A stretch of DNA of 64,000 nt from Candidatus Omnitrophota bacterium (GTDB lineage: Bacteria > Omnitrophota > Gorgyraeia > Duberdicusellales > 4484-171): positions 3,362-67,361 of the forward strand of contig JAGLUN010000051.1 in NCBI GenBank assembly GCA_023134705.1, given 5' to 3'. The number at the start of each line of letters is the position of its first letter. Within the stretch, counting starts at the first letter, position 1. The notes below the pieces were generated by a model. The model worked only from the letters and a program-made list of their open reading frames with translations, did no database searches and was not told the DNA's origin. The translations under genes were made by a program, and so were the position numbers. Shown here one piece after another: positions 8,107 through 61,706 of this stretch.

Positions 8107-9681
8107 ATGGAAAAATATCTTATCTATAGCTTTTCAGGTGAACTGGACGATATATCTCATTTATTTCCTAACGAGAGATTAGCGCATATTGCGTCTATAA
8201 TAAATGCTTTAGGGAAAGAAGTTGCGATTTGGGATAGGGGGAATATTGATACACTAATTGCCTATGGAGCAGAAAAGATTAAGGAATTTGGAGATTTAGC
8301 TTTCGAAGATTTAAGCGATGATTATTTGAGCCTTGTTGAAAAAGAAGCAAGCAAAATAATTGAAGGTGGATTTGGTATGATTTTCCTTAATCTATGGCAG
8401 GGTTCCGGATTTAAGTTCTCAATGGACTTGGCAGAATTTTTAAAGACAAAGAGTGATGTTAAAATCTATGGGATTGGCCAGAAAGTCGATTGGTTTAAAG
8501 AGGATATTTTAAAAATAGCACCCTATATAGACGGCCTGATTTTAGGTTTAGGATTTGAGGCTATAGAAAGGATGATGGCCGGAGAAAAAGTAGAAACCAT
8601 TCCTAATTTGATATTGAGAGCAAAAGGGGGGGATTTGGTTTTTACTCTCAGAGAGGCCGTAACCAATATAAATACTCTCCCTCTACCCATTTATAATTCC
8701 AGAATATATACGGGAATTGGGGGGAAGATTCCTCTTTATCATATTGCCTTGTCTAATCAAGCCTGCCCTGGAAGATGTACTTTTTGTGAAAGGCCGGAAA
8801 ATTACGGGAGAAAGATTGTAAGAAGAGATATAAATATGGTAATAGATGAGCTTAGATATTTAATGGATAGCTGCAATGCGAGGTATTTTAGAATAGCTGA
8901 TTCGACTCCTCCGCCTCAATCCCTGACTGAACTCGCGAAGGCTATCATTTCCTCCGGCCTCCATAAGAAAGGCATTCATCTGTCAGCCTTCTCAAGAATA
9001 GATATAAATAGAAAAGAAGATTTCCCGGTTCTAAAAAAGGCGGGATTTGAAACTTTGTTCTTTGGTATAGAGTCGTTGGATAACGGAAATTTAGAGCGGA
9101 TAAATAAATGCATAACTTATACAGATATAAAAACTACTTTAGAAGAAGCATGTAAGGCAGATCTCTTTGTTGTCGGTAGTTTTATCTTTCCTATACCCGG
9201 GGAAACTAAAAAATCAATGGAAAATACACTCACAAGGCTTAATGAAATTAAAAAATACCTAAATTCTGCATTATTACAGCCTGCCGGAGTATATCCTTCA
9301 ACTGATTGGGGAAGAAATCCTAAAAAATACGGGATATTGCTTTCGCCAGATTATGTTAAGGAAGCTTTAATATATCCTATAAAACTTCTTATACCTATGA
9401 GATTCTGGACTCCCTTTCCATTTACCTACCGTATAATGGAAAAAGAAGCTGAAGATGTCAAATTTGAAGATATCATTTTAGTTTTTGAGCAGTTCTATAA
9501 AGCAGTAAGGACAGAAATAGGCATTCCAGGGATTCAAGATTATGGTCTCCTCATTGCCAAGATGCTTAAAAAGGATCCTCTTGAATTCACAAATGAAAGC
9601 ATAAAATATATGGTTACAAGGGATTATGCTAAAATAAAACAGATTGTAGAAGAAACTCAAAGAGGTCTTTCATGCCAGTGA
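8107..9681 (+). CDS. B12-binding-domain radical SAM protein (class B)
   Basis: It carries CPGRCTFCE (CxxxCxxC) in mid-protein. The N-terminal third is Rossmann-like and cobalamin-binding-like. It is 524 aa. Confidence 0.6.
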   Translation: MEKYLIYSFSGELDDISHLFPNERLAHIASIINALGKEVAIWDRGNIDTLIAYGAEKIKEFGDLAFEDLSDDYLSLVEKEASKIIEGGFGMIFLNLWQGSGFKFSMDLAEFLKTKSDVKIYGIGQKVDWFKEDILKIAPYIDGLILGLGFEAIERMMAGEKVETIPNLILRAKGGDLVFTLREAVTNINTLPLPIYNSRIYTGIGGKIPLYHIALSNQACPGRCTFCERPENYGRKIVRRDINMVIDELRYLMDSCNARYFRIADSTPPPQSLTELAKAIISSGLHKKGIHLSAFSRIDINRKEDFPVLKKAGFETLFFGIESLDNGNLERINKCITYTDIKTTLEEACKADLFVVGSFIFPIPGETKKSMENTLTRLNEIKKYLNSALLQPAGVYPSTDWGRNPKKYGILLSPDYVKEALIYPIKLLIPMRFWTPFPFTYRIMEKEAEDVKFEDIILVFEQFYKAVRTEIGIPGIQDYGLLIAKMLKKDPLEFTNESIKYMVTRDYAKIKQIVEETQRGLSCQ

Positions 9682-10349
9682 AAGTAGTAGAGGTAAAAGA
9701 AGTAACTAAAGATTTTTATTTAGGGAAAACCGTAATTCAGGCATTATGGAAGCTGAGCATTAATGTGGAAGATGGTGAGTTTATAGCCATCGCCGGCCCT
9801 TCAGGAAGCGGTAAAACTACGCTTCTTAATCTTATCGGCTGTATTGATAACCCGACTTCCGGAACTATAAAAATTGATGACGTGCAGGTAAACAATCTTT
9901 CCTCTAATAGATTAGCCGAACTACGAGCCTCTAAAATAGGTTTTATATTCCAAAGTTTTAATTTGATTCCTGTACTTTCAGGATTTGAAAATGTAGAATA
10001 TCCCCTTTTGAAAAAAAGAATGAATAAAGATGAACGGAAAAAAAGGGTTACTGCTGTTTTAGAAAATGTGGGATTGGAAAAATTTATCGAGCATAGACCC
10101 GATGAATTAAGCGGCGGCCAACGGCAAAGAGTAGCTATAGCCAGAGCTTTGGTTTCTAATCCTAAGATTATATTGGCGGATGAACCAACGGCTAATCTGG
10201 ATCATTCCACAGGAATAGATATTTTGAACCTTATGAAAAAAATAAATAAACTTTCAGGAACTACTTTTATCTTTTCTACGCATGACCCTAAAATAATAAA
10301 TATAGCGGACCGGATAATAAATCTATTTGACGGACAACTTTCAAAATAA
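9672..10349 (+). CDS. ABC transporter ATP-binding protein (MacB/LolD type)
   Basis: It has Walker A GPSGSGKTT, the signature LSGGQRQRVAIARAL and Walker B ILADEPT. Confidence 0.85.
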   Translation: MPVKVVEVKEVTKDFYLGKTVIQALWKLSINVEDGEFIAIAGPSGSGKTTLLNLIGCIDNPTSGTIKIDDVQVNNLSSNRLAELRASKIGFIFQSFNLIPVLSGFENVEYPLLKKRMNKDERKKRVTAVLENVGLEKFIEHRPDELSGGQRQRVAIARALVSNPKIILADEPTANLDHSTGIDILNLMKKINKLSGTTFIFSTHDPKIINIADRIINLFDGQLSK

Positions 10350-10356
10350 TCTGTAA

Positions 10357-11586
10357 TTGTTAGATATTATGTGTCTTAAGATAGCCATACGAAATGTCTT
10401 TAGAAATAAAGTAAGGACGATAATTACTCTTTTGGCAATAACTTTTGGTTGTATGTCTTTAATTTTAATCGGTGGTTTTATCCATGACGCTTTGACTACT
10501 TATAGAGACAGCATTATATATAGCCGTTTAGGGCACATACAAATTGCCAAAAAGGGTTTTTTTAAAGAAGGGACAATTAAACCCTTCGATTACATGATTG
10601 ATAATCCTGAAGAATTGAGGGAAGCACTCGATTCTTTAGACCACATAGAAAGAATAACTCCCCGGCTTCAATTTGTAGGCCTTCTCAGCAAGGGAGAAAC
10701 AACGTTTCCTTTTTTGGCCGAAGGAATCGATCCTGCCGGAGAGAAGTCTTTAAGTTCATACATTGAATTTGAAAAGGGTGAAAATCTTTCCAAAGGGGAT
10801 AATTACACGATTATTTTAGGAAAAGGCCTTGCGCGGGCAATCGGGGCGGACGTTGGTGACGATATGATTATACTTACCAATACAATCGAAGGTGGAATGA
10901 ACGCTCTTGACGTTAAAGTAAAAGGTATTTTTTACACTTCTTCAAAAGAATATGATGATCATTTTTTAAGAATACCGGTTCGGACAGCCCAATATTTACT
11001 TCAGACAGAGAAAGTTCAGAAATTTATCGTTATCTTAGATAAAACGGCAAACCTTAAAAAAGTCACAAATAGACTTGACGATTTTTTTGTAAAAAACAAT
11101 CTTCCTCTTGAATATAAAACTTGGTTTGACCTGGCGGAATTTTATAATAAACTTGTCGCGGTATATGAACGCCAGCTTAAAGTAATCAATATTATCATTT
11201 ACATTATTGTTATTTTAAGTATCAGCAACACTATGAGTATGGCCATATTTGAACGCACAAGAGAGATAGGTACGATTATGGCGTTAGGCGCTAAAAGGCA
11301 TGAAGTCTTATTCCTTTTTATTTTAGAAGGGGCTGTCTTAGGCGCCATAGGCAGTTTATTAGGTATCGGAGGCGGTATCTTTTTTGCCCATCTAATTTCC
11401 TGGATAGGTATTCCTATGCCTCCCGGCCCGGGCATCTCAGTAGGTTGGATAGGTAAAATCGCGGTAGTACCCGCGGTAGTATGTATATCTTTTTTTCTTT
11501 GTATGATTTCTGCAGTAATTTCTTCATTCTATCCCGCGTTTAAAGCAAGTAGACTTAATGTGGCGGAAGCTTTGCGCTATGTATAA
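10357..11586 (+). CDS. FtsX-like ABC permease (MacB/LolCE family) with a large periplasmic domain
   Basis: It has an N-terminal transmembrane segment, a periplasmic domain and three C-terminal transmembrane segments. It is 409 aa and directly follows the ATPase. Confidence 0.7.
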   Translation: MLDIMCLKIAIRNVFRNKVRTIITLLAITFGCMSLILIGGFIHDALTTYRDSIIYSRLGHIQIAKKGFFKEGTIKPFDYMIDNPEELREALDSLDHIERITPRLQFVGLLSKGETTFPFLAEGIDPAGEKSLSSYIEFEKGENLSKGDNYTIILGKGLARAIGADVGDDMIILTNTIEGGMNALDVKVKGIFYTSSKEYDDHFLRIPVRTAQYLLQTEKVQKFIVILDKTANLKKVTNRLDDFFVKNNLPLEYKTWFDLAEFYNKLVAVYERQLKVINIIIYIIVILSISNTMSMAIFERTREIGTIMALGAKRHEVLFLFILEGAVLGAIGSLLGIGGGIFFAHLISWIGIPMPPGPGISVGWIGKIAVVPAVVCISFFLCMISAVISSFYPAFKASRLNVAEALRYV

Positions 11587-12385
11587 AAGAGTATTTCTTC
11601 TAATAGCTGTTGTTTTTATCATTCCTGCAGGAGTTTTTGCTGTTTTTCCACAAGAAACTTTACCCACTATTGAACCCACCAGCGAAGTTAATGGAGTTAA
11701 GCGTATATCCTTATTTACTCCGGAGGAAATTTTAGAAAAATCAGACATGATAAGATCCCCAAATTTTGATTTTTCAGTTGAAGTAATAATTACCAGTTTT
11801 AGATCTAACAGAGAAACAACTGTCAGCCGTTATGAAACTATGATAAAAGAAAAAGATAAAACTTTGGTGAAAAGCGTCTATCCCCCGCGAGATAAAGGAA
11901 GAATCATTCTTATGCGTGGTTGGGATTTATGGATTTATTTACCTACTGTTTCCCGCCCGATCCGTATTTCACCGCGTGAAAGATTATTTGGAGAGGTATC
12001 ATATGGTGATATTGCCCGTATTAACTTTACTCACGATTATAATCCCGTTTTACTGGGGATAGAAAAAATAGACGAGAAAGAATATTATGTTCTTGAGCTT
12101 AATGCCGAAAATGAAAGGGTAACCTACCATAAAGTTATTTATTTCGTCGAAAAAAACACATTCAATCCATTTAAGGCGGAATTTTACGCTGTTTCGGGTA
12201 TCCTTCTTAAGGAGTGTTTGTATGAAGATTATCGTTATGTGTTAGGAGAATCCCGTCCGATGAAGCTCATTATTACCGATAAGCTTGTTAAAGGAAAAAA
12301 ATCAATAATGGAATATAAAAATATGACAAAAGCCGATTGGCCGGAAAAGATATTTAACAAATTTTACCTGAAGAAATTGAAATAA
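11579..12385 (+). CDS. LolA-like / DUF1329-like outer-membrane lipoprotein-sorting family protein (secreted)
   Basis: It has the signal peptide MYKRVFLLIAVVFIIPAGVFA. Its size and position after a MacB-like pair fit this family. The family call rests on resemblance. Confidence 0.4.
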   Translation: MYKRVFLLIAVVFIIPAGVFAVFPQETLPTIEPTSEVNGVKRISLFTPEEILEKSDMIRSPNFDFSVEVIITSFRSNRETTVSRYETMIKEKDKTLVKSVYPPRDKGRIILMRGWDLWIYLPTVSRPIRISPRERLFGEVSYGDIARINFTHDYNPVLLGIEKIDEKEYYVLELNAENERVTYHKVIYFVEKNTFNPFKAEFYAVSGILLKECLYEDYRYVLGESRPMKLIITDKLVKGKKSIMEYKNMTKADWPEKIFNKFYLKKLK

Positions 12386-19192: not shown

Positions 19193-19210
19193 AAGCAAAA
19201 AATGTGCCAA
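19193..19210 (-). promoter_or_regulatory. Sigma-54 promoter (TGGCAC-N5-TTGCT) about 60 bp upstream of the PEP-CTERM start
   Basis: The minus strand reads TTGGCACATTTTTTGCTTAC. Confidence 0.6.
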
Positions 19211-19856: not shown

Positions 19857-20567
19857 TTACGAGGTATGTTTTTTTTGCCTGAATCCCGCGCCAATCAATC
19901 CCAAAAGCCCGGATCCAAGAAGAAGAATGGTTGCGGGTTCGGGGATGGGCGGAGTGCCTCTATATTCCAATCGAAAGGGAGTGTCTATATCAGCATGCCA
20001 GTTCCAACGATTATTACGTTCGTCTAGGTGATAGAATCCATCTCCGGTAGCAACCTTTGGTAAACGAAAGTCCGTATCGTCTGTTGTTGTGGCGGCATTT
20101 GAACCATTTAATCCGTAAAAACTAAGCCAATACTCACCGGAAGGAAGACCTAATGGAGTTGGGAGTGTGAATTCAATATCGTAAATTTTGTCAATAGTGG
20201 AAAAAGGGGCTATAGAACTTTGTAAAGCAGTGTAGTCACCAGGTATGAGTATTTGTTCATAAAAAGGAGAGGAAGTATCTGGCTTTCCAGAGCTAGAGTC
20301 GTTGTTAAAAATTGAAAATGTAAATTTTTCGAGTGAATAGTTTATAGTTATGCCTTCTTGAAACCAAACGGTATCTATTGTTGAATCCTGAGGAAGTGTG
20401 AAATCGTCGTAAATGCGCCACTTAGAAGGTGTAAAAGCTTCAGATGAGCGAAGACCTCCAGCAGATGTTCCGATGCCATTATCATAAATAATAATTGCGT
20501 CAGCCGTGCATGTGGAAATTATAATTACAAACATAGTTATAAAGAATATTAATATTCTTTTTCCCAT
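19857..20567 (-). CDS. Secreted PEP-CTERM-anchored protein
   Basis: It has a signal peptide. Its C-terminus is PIPEPATILLLGSGLLGLIGAGFRQKKHTS. Confidence 0.8.
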   Translation of the reverse strand: MGKRILIFFITMFVIIISTCTADAIIIYDNGIGTSAGGLRSSEAFTPSKWRIYDDFTLPQDSTIDTVWFQEGITINYSLEKFTFSIFNNDSSSGKPDTSSPFYEQILIPGDYTALQSSIAPFSTIDKIYDIEFTLPTPLGLPSGEYWLSFYGLNGSNAATTTDDTDFRLPKVATGDGFYHLDERNNRWNWHADIDTPFRLEYRGTPPIPEPATILLLGSGLLGLIGAGFRQKKHTS

Positions 20568-20624: not shown

Positions 20625-20642
20625 AAGCAAAAAATGTGCCAA
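20625..20642 (-). promoter_or_regulatory. Sigma-54 promoter (TGGCAC-N5-TTGCT)
   Basis: The minus strand reads TTGGCACATTTTTTGCTTGTT. The spacing to the ATG is the same as for the promoter at 19193..19210. Confidence 0.6.
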
Positions 20643-20741
20643 ATGAGGATGGATAGACGCAAATTATGAGATACGGTGAGATTGATAGCAATAATATAGT
20701 GGAAATATATAGAAATAGGTTGAAATATAGTTGAAATACAA

Positions 20742-20868
20742 GGTTACTTAAGGTTAGGGAAGGTTACGTAGGAAAGTTACATTGAGAAGGTTGCTTAAAG
20801 AAGGTTACTTCACGTCAACGTAACCTTAAGTAACTTTAAGTAACTTTATGTAACCTTATTTTAATTAA
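20742..20868. repeat. Family-B palindromic element in the opposite orientation
   Basis: It reads AAGGTTACTTAAGGTTAGGGAAGGTTACGTAGG...CACGTCAACGTAACCTTAAGTAACTTTAAGTAACTTTATGTAACC. Confidence 0.75.
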
Positions 20869-20931: not shown

Positions 20932-22296
20932 TCATCCAATTCCGTATTTCTTCATCAAATCATACAGGGTGGGGCGGGTGACTCCGAGCATCTTCGCGGC
21001 CAGGCTTACATTCTCTTTGCTTTCATCTAAGGCTTTTTTGATAAGCTGAATTTCCATATTCTCGCGGGCTTCTTTTAAAGAAAGTTTCCCTGAATTTGAA
21101 TCTTCTCTATCGCCTCCGCCAAAGCCAAGCTCTGAAGAAATAATAAAAGAATTCTCTGCCAGGATAAAAGCTCTACGGACTCTATTTTCCATTTCTCTTA
21201 CATTACCCGGCCAGCTATAACTGTTCATTAAATCTTTACATTCTTTAGTAAAGCCCTTTATGGATTTGACCGGAGATTCTTCGCGATACTTATTAAGGAA
21301 ATAAGCAGCTAAAAGCAGTACATCTTCTCCTCTTTCCCGCAAAGGGGGGATTTGAAAGTTTATAACACTTAGCCGGTAATATAGATCTTCTCTGAACAGG
21401 CCTTGTTTAATCTTTTTCTTTAAATCGCTGTTAGTCGCGGCAATGATTCTTAGATTGAGCTCTATCGGATTATTCCCTCCAACGCGTTCTATAACATGTT
21501 CCTGGAGAAATCTTAAAATTTTCACCTGTAATCCAAGACTCATCTCACCGATTTCATCTAAGAAAACCGTGCCGGTATCAGCTATTTCCAATTTCCCAAT
21601 CCTTTTTATATGAGCATCGGTAAACGCGCCTTTTTCGTGGCCGAATAGTTCACTTTCTAAAAGATTCTCGGGAATCGCTCCGCAGTTTATTACCACAAAA
21701 GGGTGTTTTCCTCTTGGACTTAGGTAATGGATTGCTTTTGCCACTAATTCTTTTCCTGTGCCGCTTTCTCCGGTAATTAAAACCGCGGCATCGGTAGGCG
21801 CTACTCTTCTTATCAATTTAAAAACTTCTTTTATCGCCGGAGAACTGCCTATCATATCTTCAAATTTAAACTTATTCTGTAATTGTTCGGATAAACGCCG
21901 GTTTTCTTCCTCTAATTCCCGCAAGTATACGGCTCTTTTTAATATCACTTTTAATTCTTCGATTTTTACCGGCTTTGAATAATAATCAAACGCTCCTTTG
22001 TTTATAGATTCCAAGGCAATATCTTTTGTGTCATTTCCGGTTATCATAATTACTTTAATAAAAGGGTCATTATTTTTAATTTCCTCTAAAATTTCTATCC
22101 CTTCTTTCCGGTTTTTATTTAACGGGTCTAAATTAATGTCTAAAGCCGCTAGTTCAAATTTTTGTTCTCTAATTACTTTCAAGGCTTCCGGTTTATTTGA
22201 AGCAGTCAGGACTCCATAATCTCCTTCTAAAGCCCATTTTAGCTGTTTAAGGATACCTTCATCGTCGTCGACGATCAAAATTTTAGTTTTTGCCAT
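20932..22296 (-). CDS. prsR: Sigma-54-dependent response regulator (NtrC family; PEP-CTERM-box regulator PrsR type)
   Basis: It has a receiver domain (ILIVDDDEG ... D54-like), an AAA+ domain (GESGTGKE Walker A, and GAFTDA, a variant of GAFTGA) and a C-terminal Fis-type HTH. It lies downstream of prsK and next to sigma-54-promoted PEP-CTERM genes. Confidence 0.8.
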
Positions 22297-22476: not shown

Positions 22477-24495
22477 TCACACTTGGGGCAATCTCACTTT
22501 AAACACTGTCCCCTCTCCCTCAACGCTTTCCGCCTCAATCTCCCCTCCATGTGCCTCGATAATAGTCTTGCATTGATAAAGGCCTACACCCATTCCCTTT
22601 TCTTTGGTGGAGCTAAAGGCTTTAAAAAGTTCATTCTCAATGAAATCTTTGGACATGCCGGTGCCGGTATCTTTAAATCGAATCTCGGCGAAGTTCCTCC
22701 CCGATTTACTGTCAATTCCCGGTTGTCCGGTATAAATCCCGGTGGAAATTATAAGATTTCCTTCGCCAGGCATGGCTTCCAGGGCGTTTATTAAAAGATT
22801 AAGAATGACTTTATTCATATAACGGCGGTCAACACATATTTCTATTGATTCCTCCACGTCTATAGTAAGCCGCGTATTCTTAAATCTGTCTTTTCCTAAG
22901 TCCCTTAAGGCTTCATTAATCAAATATGACAATTTATGTTTTTCCTTATTTATTGCTAAGTCTCCGCGCAATGTTTTAAATTCATTAATTAAACGTTTCA
23001 TTTTCCCGATAGCGTTTTCCAGCGTAAAAAAAGCGTCTTCCCGGAATTCAGGATTATTGAATTTATCTTTATTAGAAACAAGGAGTGAAAGGCTGTTAAC
23101 ATAATTCTTAACGTCATGGATAACGAATGAGGATAGTTTATAAATTGATTCTTTTTTCTCGGCTTCCCGTAATTTTTGATAAGCCCAGCAGTTTAAAATA
23201 ACGCTGGACGCCTGCAGTGATAAAACCTTAAGAAGTTCTTTGTCCAAGAAGTTGTTATCATTTAAAGACATCCCGATCAATCCGATAATTTCCTTATCTC
23301 CATATAAAGGCATTGCCGCTTCAATCTTGTTTTCTTTAAAAAAAACTTTTGCTTTGGGAAATTTGTTTTTATCCGGAGAAGAACTGTTAAAAGTTTCGTT
23401 AAAGTTAAAGGCTTCTCCCTGCCTTAGAAGCCGGTCACAAAATCCTTCTTCAAAAGGTGTCTCTTTTTCAAAGACAAAAACCCGGACAGCGGAAACATTC
23501 ATAATTTTTGAAATCGCGTCCTGGATGTTTTTCTTTATTTTTTCGACATCAGTAACGAGAGAAATTTTATAAGTAAAATCTTCCCAGATTTTTTGCCAAT
23601 CATATTTTTGGCGGGTTAAATACCTTAATAGGAATGTTCTTAACCGCTCCCGGAAAGATAATGAGAAGATAAGAAATAGTAAAGCGAAAAATATAAAAAG
23701 CGCGGTTAGAAAAGAAAACAGAACATTCAGATTCCAGCCAAAAGTCTGGAACAGTTTGATGAACGCGCCGATGAAAAATAGATAGCCTCCGACAAGGAAA
23801 AGAGTCAAAGAGGCATGAATTACGGTTTTTTCTTTTACTGCTTCGATAGAAAAACCTTTTTGAGAGGCAAAAAGAAAAATCAATCCGCCGGCAAAGACGC
23901 TTATTGACGAATAAGTTAAAACTCCAATATGTATCTCAAAAAATAATACCGCGTAGGTAGCCAGAACAACATACGGAGTAAGTAAAAATAAAGCGCTTGT
24001 AAAAAGCAATCCCAGCCTCTTTTGTCTTAAAAAGTATAAGCTTCTTTCTATATTGGAAATTGAAAAACTCAAATCAAAAATAAGAAAAATAAAAAAATAT
24101 TGCGCTAATTGAGGGAGTGTCGGGAATAAGTCATTCCCCGGTAAAATTATAAAAGGCTTTATCCACCAGAGCAGGAAAAACATCAAGGAAATAAGTCCTA
24201 AAACCGGGGTTAAAATCAGCCGGTTAAAAACATACCGTTTAGAGGGTAGCAATGATACGCTGAAAATAAGCCAAAATAAGGATATAAGGCAAAATCCCAG
24301 GCCGAATATCTTATCCGCGAAAGGGACCTCAAAAAAGAAGGAAAACTTGGCGATTTCCAAAACTACAAGGCTTAAAATACAAAATGCCGCCAGAAGATTG
24401 GTAATGCTCTTGCGCTTGAAAAGATTAAAGGTAGAAAACCCCAGCATAAAGATATTTACAATCGCAATTATTGATAAAATTGTTTGATCAAACAT
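22477..24495 (-). CDS. prsK: Multi-pass membrane sensor histidine kinase (PrsK-like PEP-CTERM-system kinase)
   Basis: It has about 10 N-terminal transmembrane helices, a GAF-like segment, an H-box VIHDVKN and an HATPase domain (GTGMSKDF, GMGVGL). It is 672 aa. Confidence 0.7.
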   Translation of the reverse strand: MFDQTILSIIAIVNIFMLGFSTFNLFKRKSITNLLAAFCILSLVVLEIAKFSFFFEVPFADKIFGLGFCLISLFWLIFSVSLLPSKRYVFNRLILTPVLGLISLMFFLLWWIKPFIILPGNDLFPTLPQLAQYFFIFLIFDLSFSISNIERSLYFLRQKRLGLLFTSALFLLTPYVVLATYAVLFFEIHIGVLTYSSISVFAGGLIFLFASQKGFSIEAVKEKTVIHASLTLFLVGGYLFFIGAFIKLFQTFGWNLNVLFSFLTALFIFFALLFLIFSLSFRERLRTFLLRYLTRQKYDWQKIWEDFTYKISLVTDVEKIKKNIQDAISKIMNVSAVRVFVFEKETPFEEGFCDRLLRQGEAFNFNETFNSSSPDKNKFPKAKVFFKENKIEAAMPLYGDKEIIGLIGMSLNDNNFLDKELLKVLSLQASSVILNCWAYQKLREAEKKESIYKLSSFVIHDVKNYVNSLSLLVSNKDKFNNPEFREDAFFTLENAIGKMKRLINEFKTLRGDLAINKEKHKLSYLINEALRDLGKDRFKNTRLTIDVEESIEICVDRRYMNKVILNLLINALEAMPGEGNLIISTGIYTGQPGIDSKSGRNFAEIRFKDTGTGMSKDFIENELFKAFSSTKEKGMGVGLYQCKTIIEAHGGEIEAESVEGEGTVFKVRLPQV

Positions 24496-24700
24496 GATTT
24501 TTTCGTATGCTTATCGCGTATCGAGTATCGCGTATCGAGCATCCAGTATCTAAAAGCTCGTCCCTCGTCTCTTCGTCCCTCATTTTTCGTTTTTCCTGTC
24601 CTCTATTCTCTGATTTCTGTCTTCCAACGAGTATCCAGCATCGAGCATCTAGCATCTAAAGTTGGCCATCGGTTCCTTCGCCCATTGACTTTCTTTTAAC
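24496..24700. repeat. Family-A composite repeat (CGCGTATCGAG array, CGTCCCTCGTC tract, GCATCGAGCATCTAGCATC units, then a variant of the GCCATCG...CCATTGAC terminus)
   Basis: It is read directly and is collinear with 4396..4776. Confidence 0.8.
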
Positions 24701-48508: not shown

Positions 48509-48889
48509 TTAAAGAACAAACCTTTTAACTCCACAACTTTTATTGCCGAAATTAACTAATAATCCGACTTTCAAATTAGATGCTCTTAAATAAGAAAGTA
48601 TCTGGTATTTAAAAACATCGGGAATATTGCCTGTTAAGGCTTTAACTTCAACTATAACTTTATCTTCTATGATTAAGTCTAATCTAAGTCTGCCAACATT
48701 CTCTCCTTGATACGAAATCGTAAAACTTTTCTCAGTCTGATACCTTAAGCCTTCCTGTTTTAAAGCTATCTCTAAGGCATTATGGTATATACGCTCATTA
48801 AATCCCGGCCCTAATTCAGAATGAACCCTATAACAACAACCTATTATTTTTTCTGTAAGTGAATCATTATCTTTCATCTGTGTAATCAT
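48509..48889 (-). CDS. GxxExxY-family protein (PD-(D/E)xK-like small selfish/insert gene)
   Basis: It carries LGPGFNERIYHNAL (G..E..Y) and the family end ...GVKRFVL. It is 126 aa. Confidence 0.65.
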   Translation of the reverse strand: MITQMKDNDSLTEKIIGCCYRVHSELGPGFNERIYHNALEIALKQEGLRYQTEKSFTISYQGENVGRLRLDLIIEDKVIVEVKALTGNIPDVFKYQILSYLRASNLKVGLLVNFGNKSCGVKRFVL

Positions 48890-51259: not shown

Positions 51260-51270
51260 TCTTTAGCTTC

Positions 51271-51420
51271 TCTCTATTATCGTATATCGTATCGCGTATT
51301 GCGTATCGAGTATCGAATATCTATCATCTACTCTCCATTTTCTGTTCTCGCCCTACATTTCTCGTCCTTCGTCTTTTCGTCTCTCGTCCCTCGTTTCTTA
51401 TCCCCCTTCACTTCCGTCCA
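51271..51420. repeat. Family-A composite repeat
   Basis: It has the CGTATCGCGTATTGCGTATCGAGTATCG array, then the TCGTCC/CTCGTCCCTCGT tract. Confidence 0.8.
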
Positions 51421-53720: not shown

Positions 53721-53740
53721 TCTCCTTTGAGTATCAAGTA

Positions 53741-53990
53741 TTGCGTATCGTGTGAAGAAAGGTTACATAAAGTTACTTAAAGTTAAGGTTACTTAAAGTT
53801 ACATAAGGTTACTTAAAGTTGCTTAAGGTTGCGTTAACGTGAAGTAACCTTCTCAAAGCAACCTTCTCTAACCTTCCCTAACCTCAGGTAACTTTCCCAA
53901 AGTAACCTTCTCTGCGTAACCTTCTTAATGTAACCTTCTTAATGTAACCTTCTCTAAGTACCTTATCAGCTATCGACCATCGACTTCCTT
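53741..53990. repeat. Family-B element (the largest copy) with the terminus CAGCTATCGACCATCGACTTCC
   Basis: It reads AAGGTTACATAAAGTTACTTAAAGTTAAGGTTACTTAAAGTTACATAAGGTTACTTAAAGTTGCTTAAGGTTGCGTTAACGTGAAGTAACC, followed by nine reverse GTAACC/TAACC units. Confidence 0.85.
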
Positions 53991-54016: not shown

Positions 54017-55342
54017 TCAGAGTCTCCAGTACAACAATCCTGAGTCTTTGAATGTTTCTTTGTTGAAGATGCCTTTAACATCAATCACTACGCCTTTACT
54101 GCCTTTGCGCGATACATGGTTTTTTATGGCTTCGGGTGTTAGTTTTTCCCGGAAAAGGTCGTGGTTCACCGCGAGTATTATGCCGTCAGCCTTAATCTCA
54201 GGGGTGTATCCGGTTAAATCTATGTTGTATTCTTTTTTTACCTCTTCTTTATCAGCTAAAGGGTCGCAGATAATGACTTCTACTCCATAGACTTTTAGCT
54301 CTTGGATTATGTCAATTACCCGGGAATTGCGGATATCACTGACATTCTCCTTAAAAGTGATTCCGCAAAGGAGAATTTTTGCTCCTTTGACCGGTTTATC
54401 AGCTTCAATGAGGTTTTTTATTACGGCTTCGGCAATATATTTGCCCATACCGTCATTTATTCTTCGTCCGGCAAGTATAATTTGGGGATTATAGCCTAAT
54501 TCTTCAGCTTTGAAAGTTAAGTAGTAAGGGTCTACTCCGATGCAATGGCCGCCTACCAGTCCGGGAAACATTTTGATGAAATTCCATTTAGTTGCCGCGG
54601 CATTTAATACCGATAAAGTATCAATGCCGGCTTTTTGAAAAATTATCGCCAGTTCGTTCATAAGCGCGATATTGAGATCTCTCTGAGTGTTCTCTATGAT
54701 TTTCGCGGCTTCGGCGCATCTAATAGACTCGGCTTTATACACTCCGGCTTCGATAATCAATTCGTAAACTTCAGAAATTTGCTTAAGTGTTTCCCGGTCA
54801 CAGCCGGATACTACCTTTATAATATTTGTAAGTGTATGTTCTTTATCCCCGGGATTAATGCGTTCGGGAGAATAGCCGGCTTTAAAATCTTGTTTATACT
54901 TAAGCTTTGAATGTTGTTCTAAAAGCGGTATGCAAAGGTCTTCGGTCACTCCGGGATAAACTGTTGATTCAAAAACAACAATAGCGCCTTTTTTTAAGTT
55001 TTTACCCACGATTTTCGAAGCATTCAGGAGGTAGGAGAGATCAGGCCGCTTATTTTTGGTTATCGGTGTAGGCACAGCTACAATAATGAAATCAGCTTGT
55101 TTCAGTTTTTTTTCGTCGTCTGTAAATTCCAGGAAAGACGCGGATTTGATTTCATCGGGGGTTGTTTCGTTGTTTGAGTCAATTCCCTTTTGTAAATTAG
55201 CTATCCGCGTTTGTTTTAAGTCAAACCCGATAGTATGCGTAATTTTACCGAATTCGACAGCCAGAGGAAGTCCGACATAACCAAGCCCCACAACCGCGAC
55301 TTTCGCTTTTTTTGTTTTGAGCTTTTCAGATAAATTCATCAT
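54017..55342 (-). CDS. UDP-N-acetyl-hexosamine 6-dehydrogenase (WecC/TviB/WbpA family nucleotide-sugar dehydrogenase)
   Basis: It has the N-terminal motif VVGLGYVGLPLA and the catalytic Cys region GGHCIGVDP. It is 441 aa. Confidence 0.7.
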   Translation of the reverse strand: MMNLSEKLKTKKAKVAVVGLGYVGLPLAVEFGKITHTIGFDLKQTRIANLQKGIDSNNETTPDEIKSASFLEFTDDEKKLKQADFIIVAVPTPITKNKRPDLSYLLNASKIVGKNLKKGAIVVFESTVYPGVTEDLCIPLLEQHSKLKYKQDFKAGYSPERINPGDKEHTLTNIIKVVSGCDRETLKQISEVYELIIEAGVYKAESIRCAEAAKIIENTQRDLNIALMNELAIIFQKAGIDTLSVLNAAATKWNFIKMFPGLVGGHCIGVDPYYLTFKAEELGYNPQIILAGRRINDGMGKYIAEAVIKNLIEADKPVKGAKILLCGITFKENVSDIRNSRVIDIIQELKVYGVEVIICDPLADKEEVKKEYNIDLTGYTPEIKADGIILAVNHDLFREKLTPEAIKNHVSRKGSKGVVIDVKGIFNKETFKDSGLLYWRL

Positions 55343-55510: not shown

Positions 55511-55957
55511 TCATAGAACAAATCTTTTTATTCCTAATTTTAATTTTTCAACGTTAAAATTAAGCAATAACCCAACTTTAATTTTTGCCAATTTCATATA
55601 AGTTAGTATTTGAGCTTCGTGTATGCCTAAAATTTTATCAACGCTTTTTAATTCTATAATAAGCTTATTTGCTATAAGAATATCGATACGATATCCACAA
55701 TCTAATTTAATCCCGTTATATTCTATCGGTAAAGAACATTGTAGAGTAAACGGTATATCTGATAGTTTTAATTCATGAGCTAAACATTGTTCATAAGCCG
55801 ATTCAAGTAAGCCTGGTCCAAGAGCCCGGTGTACTTTTATGGCACAACCTATAACTTTATTTGATAATTCATCAAATTTTACTTCGTGTCCTTCGTGTTT
55901 AAAATATTTATTTACCGGCACTTCTTCCATACTCATCTTCCAGCCTCTGGATATCAT
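55511..55957 (-). CDS. GxxExxY-family protein (second copy)
   Basis: It carries LGPGLLESAYEQCL and the end GIKRFVL. The start is probably internal (M8 or M10), so the overlap with manC may be shorter. Confidence 0.6.
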   Translation of the reverse strand: MISRGWKMSMEEVPVNKYFKHEGHEVKFDELSNKVIGCAIKVHRALGPGLLESAYEQCLAHELKLSDIPFTLQCSLPIEYNGIKLDCGYRIDILIANKLIIELKSVDKILGIHEAQILTYMKLAKIKVGLLLNFNVEKLKLGIKRFVL

Positions 55958-57368
55958 CTTCTTCCAGATATTTTCCGCATTGCACCTCTATGATTTTTAA
56001 AGGGATATCTATGGGATTTTCCAAGCAATGAATGCCTTTTTTGGGGATATAAGTGCTTTCATTGGTGTTAAGGTAGAGAGTGTTTTTTTTGTTGGTTATT
56101 TTCGCTTCGCCTTCCACTACTACCCAGTGTTCGCTTCTTTGTATATGTCTCTGGAGGCTCAGTCTTTTATGGGGTAATACTTCCACAAGTTTAACTTTAA
56201 ATCCAATGCCGGAATTTAAAACCGTGTAAGTTCCCCAGGGCCTTTTTACTTTCGTATGAATTGAATGTTCTTTACGTCGGTTTTGTTTGAGGATACGGAC
56301 TATTTCTTTTACTTCTTCCGCTCTTGACTTGTCACAAACAAGAAGAGCGTCCGGCGTATCGCTGATAATCAGGTCTTTTAAGCCAATAGTAGCAATCAGC
56401 CTTGGCTCACCGAATACCGCTGTATTTTTGCTCCCTATATCTATGGAATCCGCCTGGATTGTATTACCGTTTTTATCTTTAGCTAAAAGTTCAGCTAAAG
56501 CCGGCCAGGAACCCAAATCCGACCAGCCAATATCTTTCGCGGCCACTACCGCGGTTCGCTTGGATTTCTCTAATATCCCGTAGTCAAGCGAAATAGCCGG
56601 TATTCGTTTCCATGTTTTTTCGTTTATATCCGCGGTATCTATTTTCTTTAGTTTCGCGGCAAGTTCCGGCAAATAAGCTGTTATTTCATCCAAAATGACT
56701 TTTGCTTTCCAGATAAACATTCCACTGTTCCAGAAATATTTTTTGTCCTTAAAATACTTCTCGGCTTTAACCCTATCCGGTTTTTCCACGAATTTCTCAA
56801 CACGATATGCTTTGTATTTCGCCTGTCTGTTTTTACTCTTTAGGTCTATGGTCTGTGGTCTATGGTCTATGGTCTGTATTTTAATATACCCATACCCTGT
56901 ATGAGGCATAGTTGGCGGAATCCCCAGAGTAACCAGATAATCTTTTCCTGCTAATATCTCTGCCTGTTTCAATACACCTAAAAAACTTGTGTTATTCGAA
57001 ATAAAGTGGTCTGAGGGGAAAACAAACATTATCGCGTCAGGGTCTTGTTTAATTATAAACCTTGCGGCTAAACCAATAGCCGGAGCAGTGTTTTTCCCTT
57101 CAGGCTCAAGAATGATATTCGCCTCCGGTATGAAAAAATTTTCAACCTGTCTTTTTATCTCGAAGTTATGCCGGCAATTGGCGACAATATAAATGTTTTT
57201 TGGCGCGATAAAGGGTGTAATCCGTTTCACGGTCTGTTGAAGTAAGGATTTATTGCCTTTGAGTTTTAAAAATTGCTTTGGTTCCAACTCCCGGCTTAAC
57301 GGCCAAAAACGGCTGCCTACTCCGCCAGCCAGAATTACCGCGTACTTGTTATTTGATATTTCGTTCAT
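55908..57368 (-). CDS. manC: Mannose-1-phosphate guanylyltransferase / mannose-6-phosphate isomerase (bifunctional, with a cupin C-terminus)
   Basis: It carries AVILAGGVGSRFWPLS and FVEKP. The C-terminal cupin carries GEAKI...YIPKGIHCLENP. Confidence 0.85.
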   Translation of the reverse strand: MNEISNNKYAVILAGGVGSRFWPLSRELEPKQFLKLKGNKSLLQQTVKRITPFIAPKNIYIVANCRHNFEIKRQVENFFIPEANIILEPEGKNTAPAIGLAARFIIKQDPDAIMFVFPSDHFISNNTSFLGVLKQAEILAGKDYLVTLGIPPTMPHTGYGYIKIQTIDHRPQTIDLKSKNRQAKYKAYRVEKFVEKPDRVKAEKYFKDKKYFWNSGMFIWKAKVILDEITAYLPELAAKLKKIDTADINEKTWKRIPAISLDYGILEKSKRTAVVAAKDIGWSDLGSWPALAELLAKDKNGNTIQADSIDIGSKNTAVFGEPRLIATIGLKDLIISDTPDALLVCDKSRAEEVKEIVRILKQNRRKEHSIHTKVKRPWGTYTVLNSGIGFKVKLVEVLPHKRLSLQRHIQRSEHWVVVEGEAKITNKKNTLYLNTNESTYIPKKGIHCLENPIDIPLKIIEVQCGKYLEEDDIQRLEDEYGRSAGK

Positions 57369-57620
57369 ATATCGTCAATGGTTAATAGTCGATAGTCAAT
57401 GGTCGATAGTCTATGGGGAGAAAGTAACGCGTATTGCGTATCCTTCGGGGATACTCAGGATTCTCTCCTTCGACTGTGCTCAGGACAAGTTTCGGTCATC
57501 GCATATCGAGCATTCAGCATCCAAACTTTCTGACTTCTGTCCTCTGACTTCTGAAGCCTGTCTCCTCCCACTTCTCTATCGAGCATCTAAACTTTCTATT
57601 TACTGCCTTCTTCCCTCTGA
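57361..57620. repeat. Family-A composite repeat with GTCGATAGTCAATGG units
   Basis: It has TCGTCAATGGTTAATAGTCGATAGTCAATGGTCGATAGTCTATGG, then CGTATTGCGTATCC and GAGCATTCAGCATCC/GAGCATCTAAAC units. Confidence 0.75.
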
Positions 57621-57678: not shown

Positions 57679-57999
57679 TCATCCTTTGTTTTTTTTCTTT
57701 CTTTTCAACGCGGAAAGGACTAATCCTCCTAATCCGATTCCAAAAAGGGTTAAAGTTGCCGGTTCAGGATTAAGACCAACAAAATCATTGCCACTGCCCG
57801 AATTACTAGTGCCGCCTAAATCATCTGTATAGCCTGGATCATTTGAGTAATCAAGATCAACAAAATCACCGCCGCTGCCCGAATTATTTGAGTAATCGGC
57901 ACCGGAAAAAGAAACCGAATCAGAATCGCTGCCCCCTCCTCCGCTTTTACAGCCAATAAAGCAAACTGCTACTGTCAAAATCAGTATAAATCTTAACAT
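57679..57999 (-). CDS. Small low-complexity PEP-CTERM lipoprotein (Gly/Ser/Asp-rich)
   Basis: It has the RBS GGAGGTGATCC. The signal peptide carries the lipobox FIGC. Internal repeats are SGSGGDFVDLDYSN and SGSGNDFVGLN. The C-terminus is NPEPATLTLFGIGLGGLVLSALKRKKKNKG. Confidence 0.65.
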   Translation of the reverse strand: MLRFILILTVAVCFIGCKSGGGGSDSDSVSFSGADYSNNSGSGGDFVDLDYSNDPGYTDDLGGTSNSGSGNDFVGLNPEPATLTLFGIGLGGLVLSALKRKKKNKG

Positions 58000-58039
58000 T
58001 ATGGATCACCTCCTTTTGAATAGTCTATGGTCGATATTC

Positions 58040-58140
58040 ATTGAAATATGCTTCGCGAAATATACTTCGTGAAATATACTTCATGAAATATATAGATATA
58101 GATAGAAATAAATGGAAATATGTTGAAATAAATAGTCCGC
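58040..58140 (-). promoter_or_regulatory. GAAATAT direct-repeat block (14-bp period) upstream of the small PEP-CTERM gene, homologous to the blocks at 18036 and 19413
   Basis: It reads CGCGAAATATACTTCGTGAAATATACTTCATGAAATATATAG...GGAAATATGTTGAAATAAATAGTCCGCCATTGGCGG. Confidence 0.45.
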
Positions 58141-58179
58141 CATTGGCGGAAAATATAATTGGAATACATCTTTATTGCT

Positions 58180-58578
58180 TTAATCTTCATTTTTGGCCTT
58201 AGTTTTTGATTTGTATGTTGAACTTATAAAGTTATTTAATTTGATTGATAATTTCTTGCTCAATTTTTCCATTTTGTTAAAAATATCTTTATCGATAATC
58301 TTTCGTTCATGGAGTAAAGATAACCAATGTTCACACGATTCACTTAAAGACGCACGGCTGGTATAATAGAACTTAATCCTATCTAAGAAGTGATATCTTT
58401 TATACCCTTCAGCAATGTTTGCCCCTACAGAATCGATAGATTCAATAAATTGATCTCCCATAATCTTCTTTTCATGCCAATTCAATGCGCTATAGATTTC
58501 CCATGCAATTCCTGATAATTCTCTGGATATCCTGTAAACCTCTAAATCCTTCAGTTCTATATATTTCTTTATATCCAT
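58180..58578 (-). CDS. Four-helix-bundle protein (23S IVS-associated family), second copy
   Basis: It carries SVGANIAEGYKRYH and YYTSRASLSESCEHW. It is 132 aa. Confidence 0.65.
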   Translation of the reverse strand: MDIKKYIELKDLEVYRISRELSGIAWEIYSALNWHEKKIMGDQFIESIDSVGANIAEGYKRYHFLDRIKFYYTSRASLSESCEHWLSLLHERKIIDKDIFNKMEKLSKKLSIKLNNFISSTYKSKTKAKNED

Positions 58579-58603: not shown

Positions 58604-59581
58604 CTACCCTTTCACCAGTTGGCTTTTAAAATATTCGACTGTTCTCCTAAGGCCTTGTTCAAAATCAACTATGGGTTTGAAGCCAAGCATTGACTTGATT
58701 TTAGAAACATCGGCTAAGGTTTTGAATACGTCTCCTTTGCGTACAGGTAAAAATTCCGGTTGGATATTTTTGCCGATGATTTTATTGAGTGAGTCAACTA
58801 TGCTTAATACAGTGTTGTCTTTTCCGTTGGCAACGTTAAGAATCGTATTGCGTATCGCGTATTGCGTATCGCGTAAAGGGACGGTGGCGGCAAGGATGTT
58901 GGCTTCAACTACGTTATCAATATAAGTAAAATCACGGGATTGTTTGCCATTACCAAAAATCGGCGGTTGTTCATTATTAAGAATGCAATGGATAAATTTA
59001 GGGATAACTACAGCGTATTCGTCGTCTAATGCCTGCCTTGGGCCGAACACGTTAAAGTAACGCAGGCTTACTGTTTCCAGGCCGAAGTTCTCGCTGAAAA
59101 TCCGGCAGTAATATTCACCGGCTAATTTAGTCAAAGCGTAAGGAGAAATAAGTAACGGATAGGCGGTTTCCTTCTCAGGGAATTTGTCGGTATCTCCATA
59201 AACAGAACTTGATGACGCAAAGACCAAACGTTTCGTCCCGCACTCTCCACCGGCTTTAAGCATATTTAAAGTGCCATTAATATTTACCTCGTTATATTCA
59301 TAAGGGTTATTCATTGATTTAGGTACACTGCGTAAGGCGGCCTGGTGGAATATAATTTCGATACCTTTACAGGCTCTTAGACAAGTATCATAGTCACAGA
59401 TATCGCCTCTGATTAGTCGATAGTCGATGGCCGATTGTCCATAGCTGGATACAAAAGAGAGGTTCTCTTCTTTTCCGGAAGAGAAGTTATCAAGTACAAC
59501 CACGTCATTTCCTTCCTTCAGTAATCGTTCAACAATATGTGAACCGATAAATCCTGCTCCGCCGGTTACCAATGCTTTCAT
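58604..59581 (-). CDS. NAD-dependent UDP-sugar 4-epimerase (GalE/WbpP-like extended SDR)
   Basis: It carries ALVTGGAGFIGSH and YALTKLAGE and is 325 aa. The codons 58849..58880 are a family-A repeat unit (see findings). Confidence 0.75.
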   Translation of the reverse strand: MKALVTGGAGFIGSHIVERLLKEGNDVVVLDNFSSGKEENLSFVSSYGQSAIDYRLIRGDICDYDTCLRACKGIEIIFHQAALRSVPKSMNNPYEYNEVNINGTLNMLKAGGECGTKRLVFASSSSVYGDTDKFPEKETAYPLLISPYALTKLAGEYYCRIFSENFGLETVSLRYFNVFGPRQALDDEYAVVIPKFIHCILNNEQPPIFGNGKQSRDFTYIDNVVEANILAATVPLRDTQYAIRNTILNVANGKDNTVLSIVDSLNKIIGKNIQPEFLPVRKGDVFKTLADVSKIKSMLGFKPIVDFEQGLRRTVEYFKSQLVKG

Positions 59582-60590: not shown

Positions 60591-60800
60591 CTCAGGATTC
60601 CCTTCGGTCATTTCGTATTGCGTATCGCGTATCGCGTATTGCGTTATAAATTCCTTTTACTAACTTTATACCTTTTTTCCAAACTCTTAAATCTCTAAAA
60701 TATTTTATTTTGTCTTCCATTTTGTCATATTTGTGTTTTGTACGCGATACGCGATACTCGTTACGCGATACGCTATTATTGCTTTCATAAATTTCGTATT
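60591..60800. repeat. Family-A arrays in inverted orientation bracketing a 5' fragment (about 60650..60740) of a four-helix-bundle gene
   Basis: 60611..60645 reads CGTATTGCGTATCGCGTATCGCGTATTGCG. 60745..60790 reads GTACGCGATACGCGATACTCGTTACGCGATACG. 60650..60740 is about 90 percent identical to 61092..61180. Confidence 0.75.
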
Positions 60801-60803
60801 GCG

Positions 60804-61163
60804 TTATAATTTTTTTGCTAAATTAGTAATCATTCTACAAATATGGTCGATTATTTCTGTTAATTCGTTTTCTTTGTCTTCTTTTATGTAAGACAATTCT
60901 TTTGTAATTATCACCTGGGTTTCTAATTCCGCGCAGGAACCTAAAGATATATTGAGAAATTGTTTGTATTCTTTGTTATGTTTTCGTCTAAAACCCTCTG
61001 CTATGTTAGAAGGGATAGAAATGGCACATCTTCTCATTTGAGAAGAAAGTCCATATTGTTCTTCTTTAGGGAAACTTTTCGTTGTTTTATAAATTTCTTT
61101 TACTAGCTCTATACCTTTTTTCCAAACTCTTAAATCTCTAAAACGTCTTATTTTGTCTTCCAT
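60804..61163 (-). CDS. Four-helix-bundle protein (23S IVS-associated family), third copy
   Basis: It carries RRCAISIPSNIAEGFRRKH and NISLGSCAELETQ. It is 119 aa. Confidence 0.7.
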   Translation of the reverse strand: MEDKIRRFRDLRVWKKGIELVKEIYKTTKSFPKEEQYGLSSQMRRCAISIPSNIAEGFRRKHNKEYKQFLNISLGSCAELETQVIITKELSYIKEDKENELTEIIDHICRMITNLAKKL

Positions 61164-61214
61164 ATTGTCATATTTGTTTGTACGCGATACGCAATACGCG
61201 TTACGCGATACGAA

Positions 61215-61706
61215 TCACGCGATACGCGTTACAATATTTTTAAAGAATATAATTGCTCCCACAATTACCGCGTTTATTGAGGCTAAGAGGACCCCGGCAG
61301 CGGCAATGTCTTTAACCAGTTTAACCGAAGGATGATATTTCTTGCCGTTTAAAAAGTCTAAGCTTAACTCTAAAGCCGTGTTAATAATTTCACAAGCAAT
61401 AACAAAGATCATGGCTAAAAACAAAATTGCCATTTCTAAATAAGAAACCTTAATCAAAAGACTTAAGACAATGACCGATAATCCCGTAATAATATGTATA
61501 CGGATGTTCCTTTGGCTTTTTAAAGCGAATTTAAGCCCTTCCCAGGCACAAACAAAGCTGCTCAATAAATTTCTTCGTTTATTAAAAATATTTAAGGGAT
61601 AATTGTTAACCTCTAATGAAGAAGCATTAGCGGTTAAGGGATTAGGTCCGGAATGATTATTTTTTACAACTTCATCCATCCCTTGACCAAGATTAATCTC
61701 CGGCAT
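61215..61706 (-). CDS. dgkA: Diacylglycerol/undecaprenol kinase (DgkA family)
   Basis: It carries EIINTALELSLDF and VKDIAAAGVLLASINAVIVG, and has three transmembrane helices. The start is assigned at the internal Met to avoid the upstream overlap. The ORF could extend to 61772. Confidence 0.55.
   Translation of the reverse strand: MPEINLGQGMDEVVKNNHSGPNPLTANASSLEVNNYPLNIFNKRRNLLSSFVCAWEGLKFALKSQRNIRIHIITGLSVIVLSLLIKVSYLEMAILFLAMIFVIACEIINTALELSLDFLNGKKYHPSVKLVKDIAAAGVLLASINAVIVGAIIFFKNIVTRIA

Follow-up and report, generated by a model that had tools for sequence, protein, structure and literature searches.

How little can a PEP-CTERM protein consist of besides its sorting signals, and what could so small a protein do? 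The question was raised by a gene found in a 64-kb stretch of DNA (64,000 nucleotides, 35.6% G+C) from a Candidatus Omnitrophota bacterium; this whole stretch is the DNA that was analysed and is referred to as the window. The gene is complete, lies on the minus strand at 57679..57999 (stop codon 57679..57681) and, according to the open reading frame (ORF) list and the sequence, encodes a protein of 106 residues with the translation MLRFILILTVAVCFIGCKSGGGGSDSDSVSFSGADYSNNSGSGGDFVDLDYSNDPGYTDDLGGTSNSGSGNDFVGLNPEPATLTLFGIGLGGLVLSALKRKKKNKG. The protein consists of a signal peptide of the lipoprotein type, a disordered acidic linker of about 60 residues and a PEP-CTERM domain. A protein identical to it is present at NCBI as 'PEP-CTERM sorting domain-containing protein' from a Candidatus Omnitrophica metagenome-assembled genome (MAG). 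The PEP-CTERM annotation of the gene is already known; what is new is the recurrent mini-architecture that bears a lipobox, and its conserved placement in polysaccharide loci.

Architecture of the protein and reality of its gene

The signal peptide comprises residues 1–17 (MLRFILILTVAVCFIGC; 57949..57999, minus strand). At the level of sequence pattern, it has a positive n-region (Arg3) followed by a hydrophobic core of 13 residues that ends at the lipobox FIGC (F14-I15-G16-C17; 57949..57960, minus strand, with the codon of Cys17 at 57949..57951). FIGC fits the lipoprotein pattern G+LPPv2. Cys13, at position −4, is the sole reason why it fails the stricter PROSITE pattern PS00013. The protein lacks a good AxA site. 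AlphaFold2, run with an alignment of 35 family sequences, placed a helix at residues 2–17, and G16 and C17 are invariant in that alignment. The initial annotation, made from the letters of the DNA and a list of its ORFs, had pointed to this lipobox, which is indeed present at the end of the hydrophobic stretch.

Residues 18–77 (57769..57948, minus strand) form an acidic linker of low complexity. It is composed to 75% of Gly, Ser, Asp, Asn, and Thr, with 10 acidic residues (all Asp) and a single basic one (Lys); it is hypervariable across the family, and AlphaFold2 returned it as coil with pLDDT of 48–70. Two internal repeats had been claimed for this region, and both were found by self-match: SGSGGDFVDLDYSN (residues 40–53; 57841..57882, minus strand) and SGSGNDFVGLN (residues 67–77; 57769..57801, minus strand). 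The copies are identical at 9 of 11 residues and 28 of 33 nucleotides, a self-match that was reached by only one of 2000 composition-preserving shuffles of the linker. In the homologue P0002 (119 residues), the unit is present as a full tandem duplication of 27 residues, 24 of which are identical between the copies; in the 106-residue protein, 12 residues of its first unit have been lost. The linker is a degenerate tandem repeat.

The PEP-CTERM sorting domain follows directly (residues 78–106; 57682..57768, minus strand), with the Pro-Glu-Pro motif, a hydrophobic helix (ATLTLFGIGLGGLVLSAL) and the basic tail KRKKKNKG. The check with TIGR02595 that had been proposed for it gave 20.5 bits against a cut-off of 16, and PF07589 gave 21.6 bits against 20.7, the match spanning residues 78–103 of 106. 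The AlphaFold2 model contains just two terminal helices, 2–17 and 80–105, with low-confidence coil between them. This, together with the low complexity of the linker, bears out the earlier statement that the protein has essentially no globular domain.

It had also been considered that the start codon, and with it the lipobox, might be an artefact of a longer true ORF. A Shine-Dalgarno site, AAGGAGGTGATCC, was located at 58003..58015 (minus strand), its GGAGG core being 9 nt from the ATG. The site also contains an in-frame TGA at 58006..58008, 9 nt upstream of the ATG. Hence an N-terminal extension is impossible, and the signal peptide and lipobox do not result from a mis-called start. P0002, which comes from a second, independent metagenome (contig L083), is 80% identical to the protein. 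Between the two DNA sequences, the promoter region, the ribosome-binding site including the Shine-Dalgarno site, and the coding frame are conserved, and divergence sets in immediately past the stop codon. Synonymous differences number 9 and non-synonymous ones 13 (pN/pS 0.44), one of the synonymous changes being in the codon of Cys17, and the two indels (36 nt and 3 nt) are both in frame. Short periodic repeats are abundant in the intergenic DNA around the gene, the protein is of low complexity and it has very few close homologues; these features would fit a spurious ORF, or a decayed leftover of a larger PEP-CTERM gene in a repeat-rich region. Such an origin is extremely improbable in view of the strong ribosome-binding site, the conservation of the frame in an independent metagenome, where changes are partly synonymous and indels are in frame, the defined sorting signals that are matched at both termini, and the recurrence of the architecture at comparable loci of diverged genomes. 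The conservation pattern against P0002 effectively refutes the spurious-ORF explanation and, as judged from sequence, the gene is a real one.

A family of mini PEP-CTERM proteins and its genomic contexts

A profile built from the protein and P0002 was searched with hmmsearch against 1.84 billion cluster representatives (E ≤ 1e-3). The search returned 38 matches, nearly all of 77–134 residues. The family members have a short signal peptide ending in L-[AST]-G-C, followed by Lys, Arg, Asn, or Gly and a GGGGS-like stretch, then a hypervariable low-complexity linker, and finally (N)PEP, T-x-x-LFGIGL-x-GLA, and a Lys/Arg tail. Only five columns of the 35-sequence alignment are invariant: G16, C17, P78, E79, and P80. 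In P0002 the lipobox is the canonical LTGC.

The lipobox was present in 52 of the 70 matches of at most 150 residues, and 48 of the 70 passed the strict PROSITE rule. In contrast, none of 79 PEP-CTERM proteins longer than 150 residues, retrieved through their C-termini, had it. A second baseline was drawn from 26 JGI metagenome loci, for which a match to the C-terminal pattern T[LM][VIT]LFGIGL was the sole criterion of choice; here again no lipobox was found in 26 PEP-CTERM proteins, which are 186–461 residues long and have signal peptides of the AxA type, save for a few truncated or doubtful ORFs. Signal peptides of the AxA type are also carried by the three larger PEP-CTERM proteins of the window. 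The absence of the box from these 105 ordinary PEP-CTERM proteins (0/79 and 0/26), against 52 of 70, marks it as a specific trait of the mini class. Besides the generic PEP-CTERM models, no NCBIfam model matched the protein or the relatives that were examined, and a search of the accessible literature found no paper linking the lipobox to PEP-CTERM proteins as a class. The mini proteins with a lipobox are therefore a rare class, and apparently an undescribed one. Of the earlier reading as a miniature PEP-CTERM lipoprotein, the architecture stood, with Gly-Cys of the lipobox invariant in the family and the box in none of the 105 ordinary proteins; lipidation itself is the part that is still a matter of prediction.

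The gene is part of an exopolysaccharide (EPS) cluster on the minus strand that runs from about 24.6 to 63.8 kb and dominates the window. ManC lies directly downstream of it; upstream is a TviC-like epimerase, with a single inserted four-helix-bundle gene between. The order of the module is Wza, Wzz, an ATPase of the XrtA-associated type, a tyrosine kinase, and GlmM, then, further on, the TviC-like epimerase, the mini gene, and ManC. To the right of the window are a tyrosine autokinase, Wza, a MerR-like gene, an ATPase of the XrtA/PEP-CTERM-system type (298.7 bits; cut-off 324.5) and an XrtA-type chain-length determinant, Wzz (261 bits; cut-off 279). For Wzz, the ATPase, and the tyrosine kinase, the XrtA-type models are the best matches, all of them below the equivalog cut-offs.

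Five of six genomic contexts, that is, those of the gene itself and of five relatives, are inside such XrtA-type polysaccharide modules. The module of P0035 (L088) reads Wza, Wzz, ATPase, tyrosine kinase, GlmM, TviB-like dehydrogenase, TviC-like epimerase, mini gene, and NTP-transferase; the mini gene thus occupies the same position as in the window, immediately after the TviC-like epimerase, and the identities to the module of the window are 54% for the ATPase, 57% for GlmM, and 70% for the epimerase. P0045 (L117) is flanked by the tyrosine kinase and GlmM genes. P0042 (L116) lies between a TviB-like dehydrogenase and a TviC-like epimerase that is 74% identical to the one in the window. The gene shifts its position within the module and yet stays in it, which argues for functional coupling. 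The mini gene adjoins a TviB-like gene, a TviC-like gene, or both, in three of the contexts examined.

The initial annotation had proposed to look for homologues next to exosortase genes, and one was found. P0040 (L084) sits two genes upstream of an exosortase whose best match is XrtA (178.5 bits; cut-off 208) and which scores 174.6 bits with TIGR02602 (cut-off 105.6). Upstream of P0040 are a priming sugar transferase and one gene without a known family; downstream are a TPR gene, the exosortase, EpsI, a histidine kinase, and a sigma-54 regulator. As for the proposed link to EPS and exosortase, the synteny of the gene and its relatives with XrtA-type modules supports it; an exosortase of this organism is an assumption, none having been found in the available sequence of its genome. 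In the contexts compared, the family is persistently encoded within XrtA-type EPS modules of Omnitrophota-like genomes. It may be noted that the gene without a known family encodes a protein of 276 residues (2634-3464 of L084), lies directly upstream of P0040 and has no Pfam or NCBIfam match; its product may be a partner of P0040.

Proposed function and its alternatives

We consider it probable, at about 0.6, that the protein is the lipidated substrate of an exosortase and serves as a tether between membrane and polysaccharide. Once the protein is exported, Lgt and LspA would modify Cys17 with diacylglyceryl and remove the signal peptide, so that the protein would be held by its N-terminal lipid and its C-terminal PEP-CTERM helix. 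An exosortase, assumed to be encoded elsewhere in the genome, would then cut at Pro-Glu-Pro and either transfer or release the new C-terminus. Its presence is supported indirectly by PrsR, which scores above its equivalog cut-off, and by P0040, which lies near an exosortase and EpsI; the PrsK-like kinase, the three larger PEP-CTERM genes, and the Wzy_C gene of the window also speak for a PEP-CTERM system in this genome. The product would be an acidic lipopeptide of about 60 residues, probably glycosylatable, at the interface of membrane and EPS, where it would help to keep the polysaccharide cell-bound; the linker could be O-glycosylated by the Wzy_C-type enzyme of the locus. We infer the C-terminal cleavage and the function of the protein and, from its sequence pattern, the lipidation of Cys17. 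The protein may also act as a scaffold or primer for the EPS, as was suggested earlier, priming being argued from gene position only.

Several observations weigh against a lipidated exosortase substrate. The lipobox of the protein has an unusual Phe at −3 besides the Cys at −4 on account of which it fails the strict PROSITE expression. The invariance of Gly-Cys was partly built into the family, because the query profile contained the lipobox, and the two lipobox baselines address this bias only indirectly. The search for an exosortase was negative in the 64-kb window, where five NCBIfam scans and one Pfam scan covered essentially all ORFs of at least 100 residues, and also in the 7 kb past its right end (L001 and L118, with the MerR, Wza, Wzz, ATPase, and tyrosine kinase genes); lgt, lspA, and lnt are not among the genes of the window. 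When 80 related GTDB loci surrounding the XrtA-type ATPase were searched by regular expression and hidden Markov model, none had the mini gene, and in the two closest of these (L004 and L032) it was also absent past the orthologous epimerase. The mini gene is therefore no essential component of the module. One relative, P0025 (Omnitrophota MAG), lies outside any EPS cluster and adjoins a TPR gene and an OmpR-type two-component pair. To our knowledge, the chemistry of exosortases, both the acceptor and even transpeptidation itself, has not been established for any member of that enzyme family.

The doubts about the lipobox leave some room for an ordinary small PEP-CTERM cargo in which the Cys is not lipidated, either because signal peptidase I cleaves, for example after C-K-S, or because Cys17 has another role. 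The protein would then be a short cargo of low complexity, like many PEP-CTERM proteins that are rich in Ser, Thr, and Gly. The non-canonical FIGC fits this explanation, and the invariance of Gly-Cys is in part a consequence of the search profile. Nevertheless, we regard it as unlikely. P0002 and most family members have the canonical L-[AST]-G-C, and 48 of the 70 small matches satisfy the strict PROSITE pattern; the Cys is always at the end of the hydrophobic region with a Gly-rich tether next to it; and ordinary PEP-CTERM proteins have AxA sites in place of the box, a good one of which the 106-residue protein does not possess. If the lipobox should turn out to be non-functional, the protein would be one more short low-complexity PEP-CTERM protein.

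Since AlphaFold2 gave two terminal helices and nothing else, the protein could also be imagined as no exosortase cargo at all, that is, as a stable two-helix membrane hairpin with an acidic periplasmic loop, serving as an accessory or regulatory subunit of Wza/Wzz/tyrosine-kinase export. The tight embedding of the gene in the export and precursor module, once directly after the tyrosine kinase, would agree with this, as would the failure to find an exosortase in or near the window and the lack of a sigma-54 promoter, unlike the typical PEP-CTERM genes of the window. This alternative is less probable still than that of an ordinary cargo. The C-terminus scores above the curated PEP-CTERM cut-offs, the invariant Pro-Glu-Pro is hard to explain for a mere anchor, and P0040 is found close to an exosortase; moreover, the hypervariability of the loop argues against a specific protein–protein interface. 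With both alternatives weighed, a lipidated exosortase substrate is the reading that we prefer.

The fate of PEP-CTERM substrates, both the acceptor and the destination of the product, has not been established since the PEP-CTERM/exosortase system was proposed in 2006. In the present family, a substrate appears cut down to two sorting signals and a disordered linker of about 60 residues, and is repeatedly kept in a polysaccharide export module; by this minimal build and its retention in the module, it offers a natural minimal model of an exosortase substrate. The lipid anchor at one end and the exosortase tag at the other suggest a role as a membrane-to-matrix tether, and the small size of the members suits intact-mass spectrometry of both termini. 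A bolder proposal, which we hold to be rather doubtful, is that the mini-lipoproteins are covalent tethers of capsule or EPS comparable to the lipoprotein Lpp. Lipidation and Lol-type sorting would in that case be followed by exosortase cleavage at Pro-Glu-Pro and ligation of the new C-terminus to the polysaccharide; alternatively, the linker, rich in Ser, Thr, and Asn, would be glycosylated by the Wzy_C ligase-like enzyme. By either route, a lipid-anchored peptide–polysaccharide conjugate would arise and hold the matrix to the cell. If such covalent tethering is true, no natural exosortase substrate would be smaller than this family, and the exosortase acceptor, long sought, would be revealed by it.

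Regulatory elements, neighbouring genes and known systems

The three larger PEP-CTERM genes of the window (16720-17745, 18379-19134, and 19857-20567, all on the minus strand) form a group at 16.7–24.5 kb with PrsR (20932-22296; 558 bits, above the equivalog cut-off of 502.6) and a PrsK-like kinase (22477-24495). Perfect sigma-54 −24/−12 boxes (TGGCAC-N5-TTGCT) were located 58–77 nt upstream of these three genes, at 17823-17838, 19194-19209, and 20626-20641 (minus strand). Sigma-54 promoters with the PEP-CTERM box were described for 99 of 167 genes in Proteobacteria, being frequent but not obligatory there, and Haft et al. found no such motif outside Proteobacteria (PMC1569441). The arrangement of sigma-54 boxes, PrsR, and PEP-CTERM genes in the window matches the description by Haft et al. 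and is a textbook regulon outside Proteobacteria.

The mini gene differs in this respect. The terminator-like hairpin TCCGCCAATGGCGGA with a T-rich tail lies at 58136..58150 (minus strand), after the upstream four-helix-bundle gene, and marks the mini gene as a separate transcription unit. The 136 nt between this terminator and the ATG contain no GG-N10-GC element of the sigma-54 type. A scan for sigma-70 promoters upstream of the gene gave a single weak match; it overlaps with the start codon and does not exceed the expectation from shuffles. Expression of the mini gene appears to be decoupled from the sigma-54/PrsR-type promoters of the larger genes; this would show that the PEP-CTERM genes of a single locus can differ in promoter type, sigma-54-dependent or other. 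Downstream of the stop codon, the search for a terminator-like site was negative; an 11-bp inverted repeat was seen there, the fold of which is no better than that of shuffles (z = −0.15). An Rfam scan of the whole window gave no family at the gathering score.

The leader of 136 nt is filled by a tandem repeat with a 14-bp period and 3.6 copies (58042..58092, minus strand; Tandem Repeats Finder). Within it, the 12-mer RAAGYAYATTTC occurs in three tandem copies (58043..58082, minus strand), and the same 12-mer occurs in two tandem copies per region before two of the other PEP-CTERM genes (18082-18107 and 19456-19481, minus strand), where the pairs are about 250 nt upstream of the sigma-54 boxes. 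The seven occurrences in the window, against 0.11 expected, are all in gene orientation, and each of them precedes a PEP-CTERM gene. About 70 nt around the 12-mers can be aligned between the upstream region of the mini gene and the other two, and the tandem element is conserved in L083. The 12-mers are a candidate binding site of a shared regulator. The two other regions (pep1 and pep2) are duplicates with 93% identity, which limits their independence; because of this duplication, and because the pattern was derived from the same sequences, it provides a lead to such a site and not a proof.

Short periodic repeats, mostly with a 7-nt period (GTATCGC/GTATCGA, GTAACCT/AAGGTTAC, ATAGTCG), were observed in nearly every intergenic spacer on both strands. 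Examples are at 4390-4690, 5520-5680, 6100-6250, 7690-7920, 17880-17920, 20740-20860, and 24496-24690, and further ones at 51267-51340, 53727-53970, 57372-57414, 58840-58880, 60610-60780, and 61163-61240. They reach into coding sequence at 56842-56870 (ManC) and 59414-59442 (epimerase). These heptamers resemble the STRR repeats of cyanobacteria.

Among the other genes of the EPS cluster, the glycosyltransferases include GT4 enzymes whose best matches are the XrtA/PEP-CTERM-system families stp2 and stp3; assembly is represented by a Wzy_C (O-antigen-ligase-like) protein and a flippase-like protein, and sugar-nucleotide synthesis by WecB, RmlABCD, two UDP-sugar dehydrogenases, and the TviB-like/TviC-like pair. 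The TviB-like UDP-GlcNAc 6-dehydrogenase (54017-55342, minus strand; 492 bits) and the TviC-like epimerase (58604-59581, minus strand; 233 bits) are both below their equivalog cut-offs, and the pair suggests a polysaccharide with N-acetyl-aminuronic acids, as in the Vi antigen. Four-helix-bundle genes ('23S rRNA intervening sequence protein'; 58180-58578, 60804-61163, and 60592-60720) and GxxExxY/PDDEXK_3 genes (48509-48889 and 55511-55957) are inserted between the polysaccharide genes. The copy at 60592-60720 is truncated and, together with a 96-nt repeat (60639-60734 and 61082-61177, 91% identical), suggests recent duplication or mobility.

Elsewhere in the window, a LolD-like ATPase and a LolC/E-like permease (9672..12385) are accompanied by a LolA_like protein (PF17131, 150 bits) and a DUF1302 outer-membrane protein. 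This cluster (9672-13829, plus strand) may be a system for the trafficking of lipoproteins or lipids, and it bears on the question whether this organism delivers lipoproteins to its outer membrane. Two paralogous genes with weak matches to PRK14852-type hypothetical proteins are contained in a tandem duplication of about 1.9 kb (1026-2413 and 2947-4303, 93–96% identity).

When compared with the PEP-CTERM proteins of the EpsH/XrtA system (Haft et al. 2006, PMC1569441), the 106-residue protein is alike in the Pro-Glu-Pro motif, the hydrophobic helix, and the Arg/Lys cluster, with scores above the cut-offs, in having an N-terminal signal peptide and few recognisable domains, and in being encoded as a single-gene unit in an EPS locus with PrsK/PrsR and XrtA-type Wzz, ATPase, and tyrosine kinase. 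It differs from the usual members in its lipoprotein-type signal peptide, where an AxA-type one would be customary, and in having only about 60 mature residues. Its gene has no −24/−12 promoter of the kind seen before the other three, and lies among sugar-nucleotide genes, with no large intergenic region preceding it as is usual for PEP-CTERM genes.

The PExPT-CTERM targets of XrtJ (TIGR04200, model length 57) set a precedent for dedicated exosortase substrates of very small size. Their C-terminal signature differs from that of the present protein, for which TIGR04200 gave no match at E ≤ 10; P0040 scored 19.1 bits against a cut-off of 40. We know of no lipobox described for that family. Braun's lipoprotein Lpp is likewise small, with about 60 mature residues, and is anchored by a lipid at its N-terminus; it forms a helical coiled coil, and its C-terminus is handled by an L,D-transpeptidase that links the envelope to peptidoglycan. 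The resemblance to the mini protein is a functional analogy only: there is no similarity in sequence or structure, the mini protein being disordered, the enzyme would be an exosortase in place of the L,D-transpeptidase, and the partner a putative EPS in place of peptidoglycan, with the attachment itself hypothetical.

A further related protein is PepA (NF033554; Aquincola/Zoogloea), which is likewise a PEP-CTERM protein in or near an EPS/exosortase locus (PMC9850573). The mini protein is not a member of its family, as NF033554 gave 14.2 bits, in the C-terminal region only, against a cut-off of 80; PepA is also unlike it in having about 260 residues and in being RpoN-dependent. The gene that directly follows P0040, on the other hand, is a TPR gene, which parallels the position of pepA before prsT. 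Overexpression of PepA in Aquincola shifts EPS from the released to the cell-bound form (PMC9850573), and this is the only experimental precedent, by analogy, for the role in EPS that the mini protein may have.

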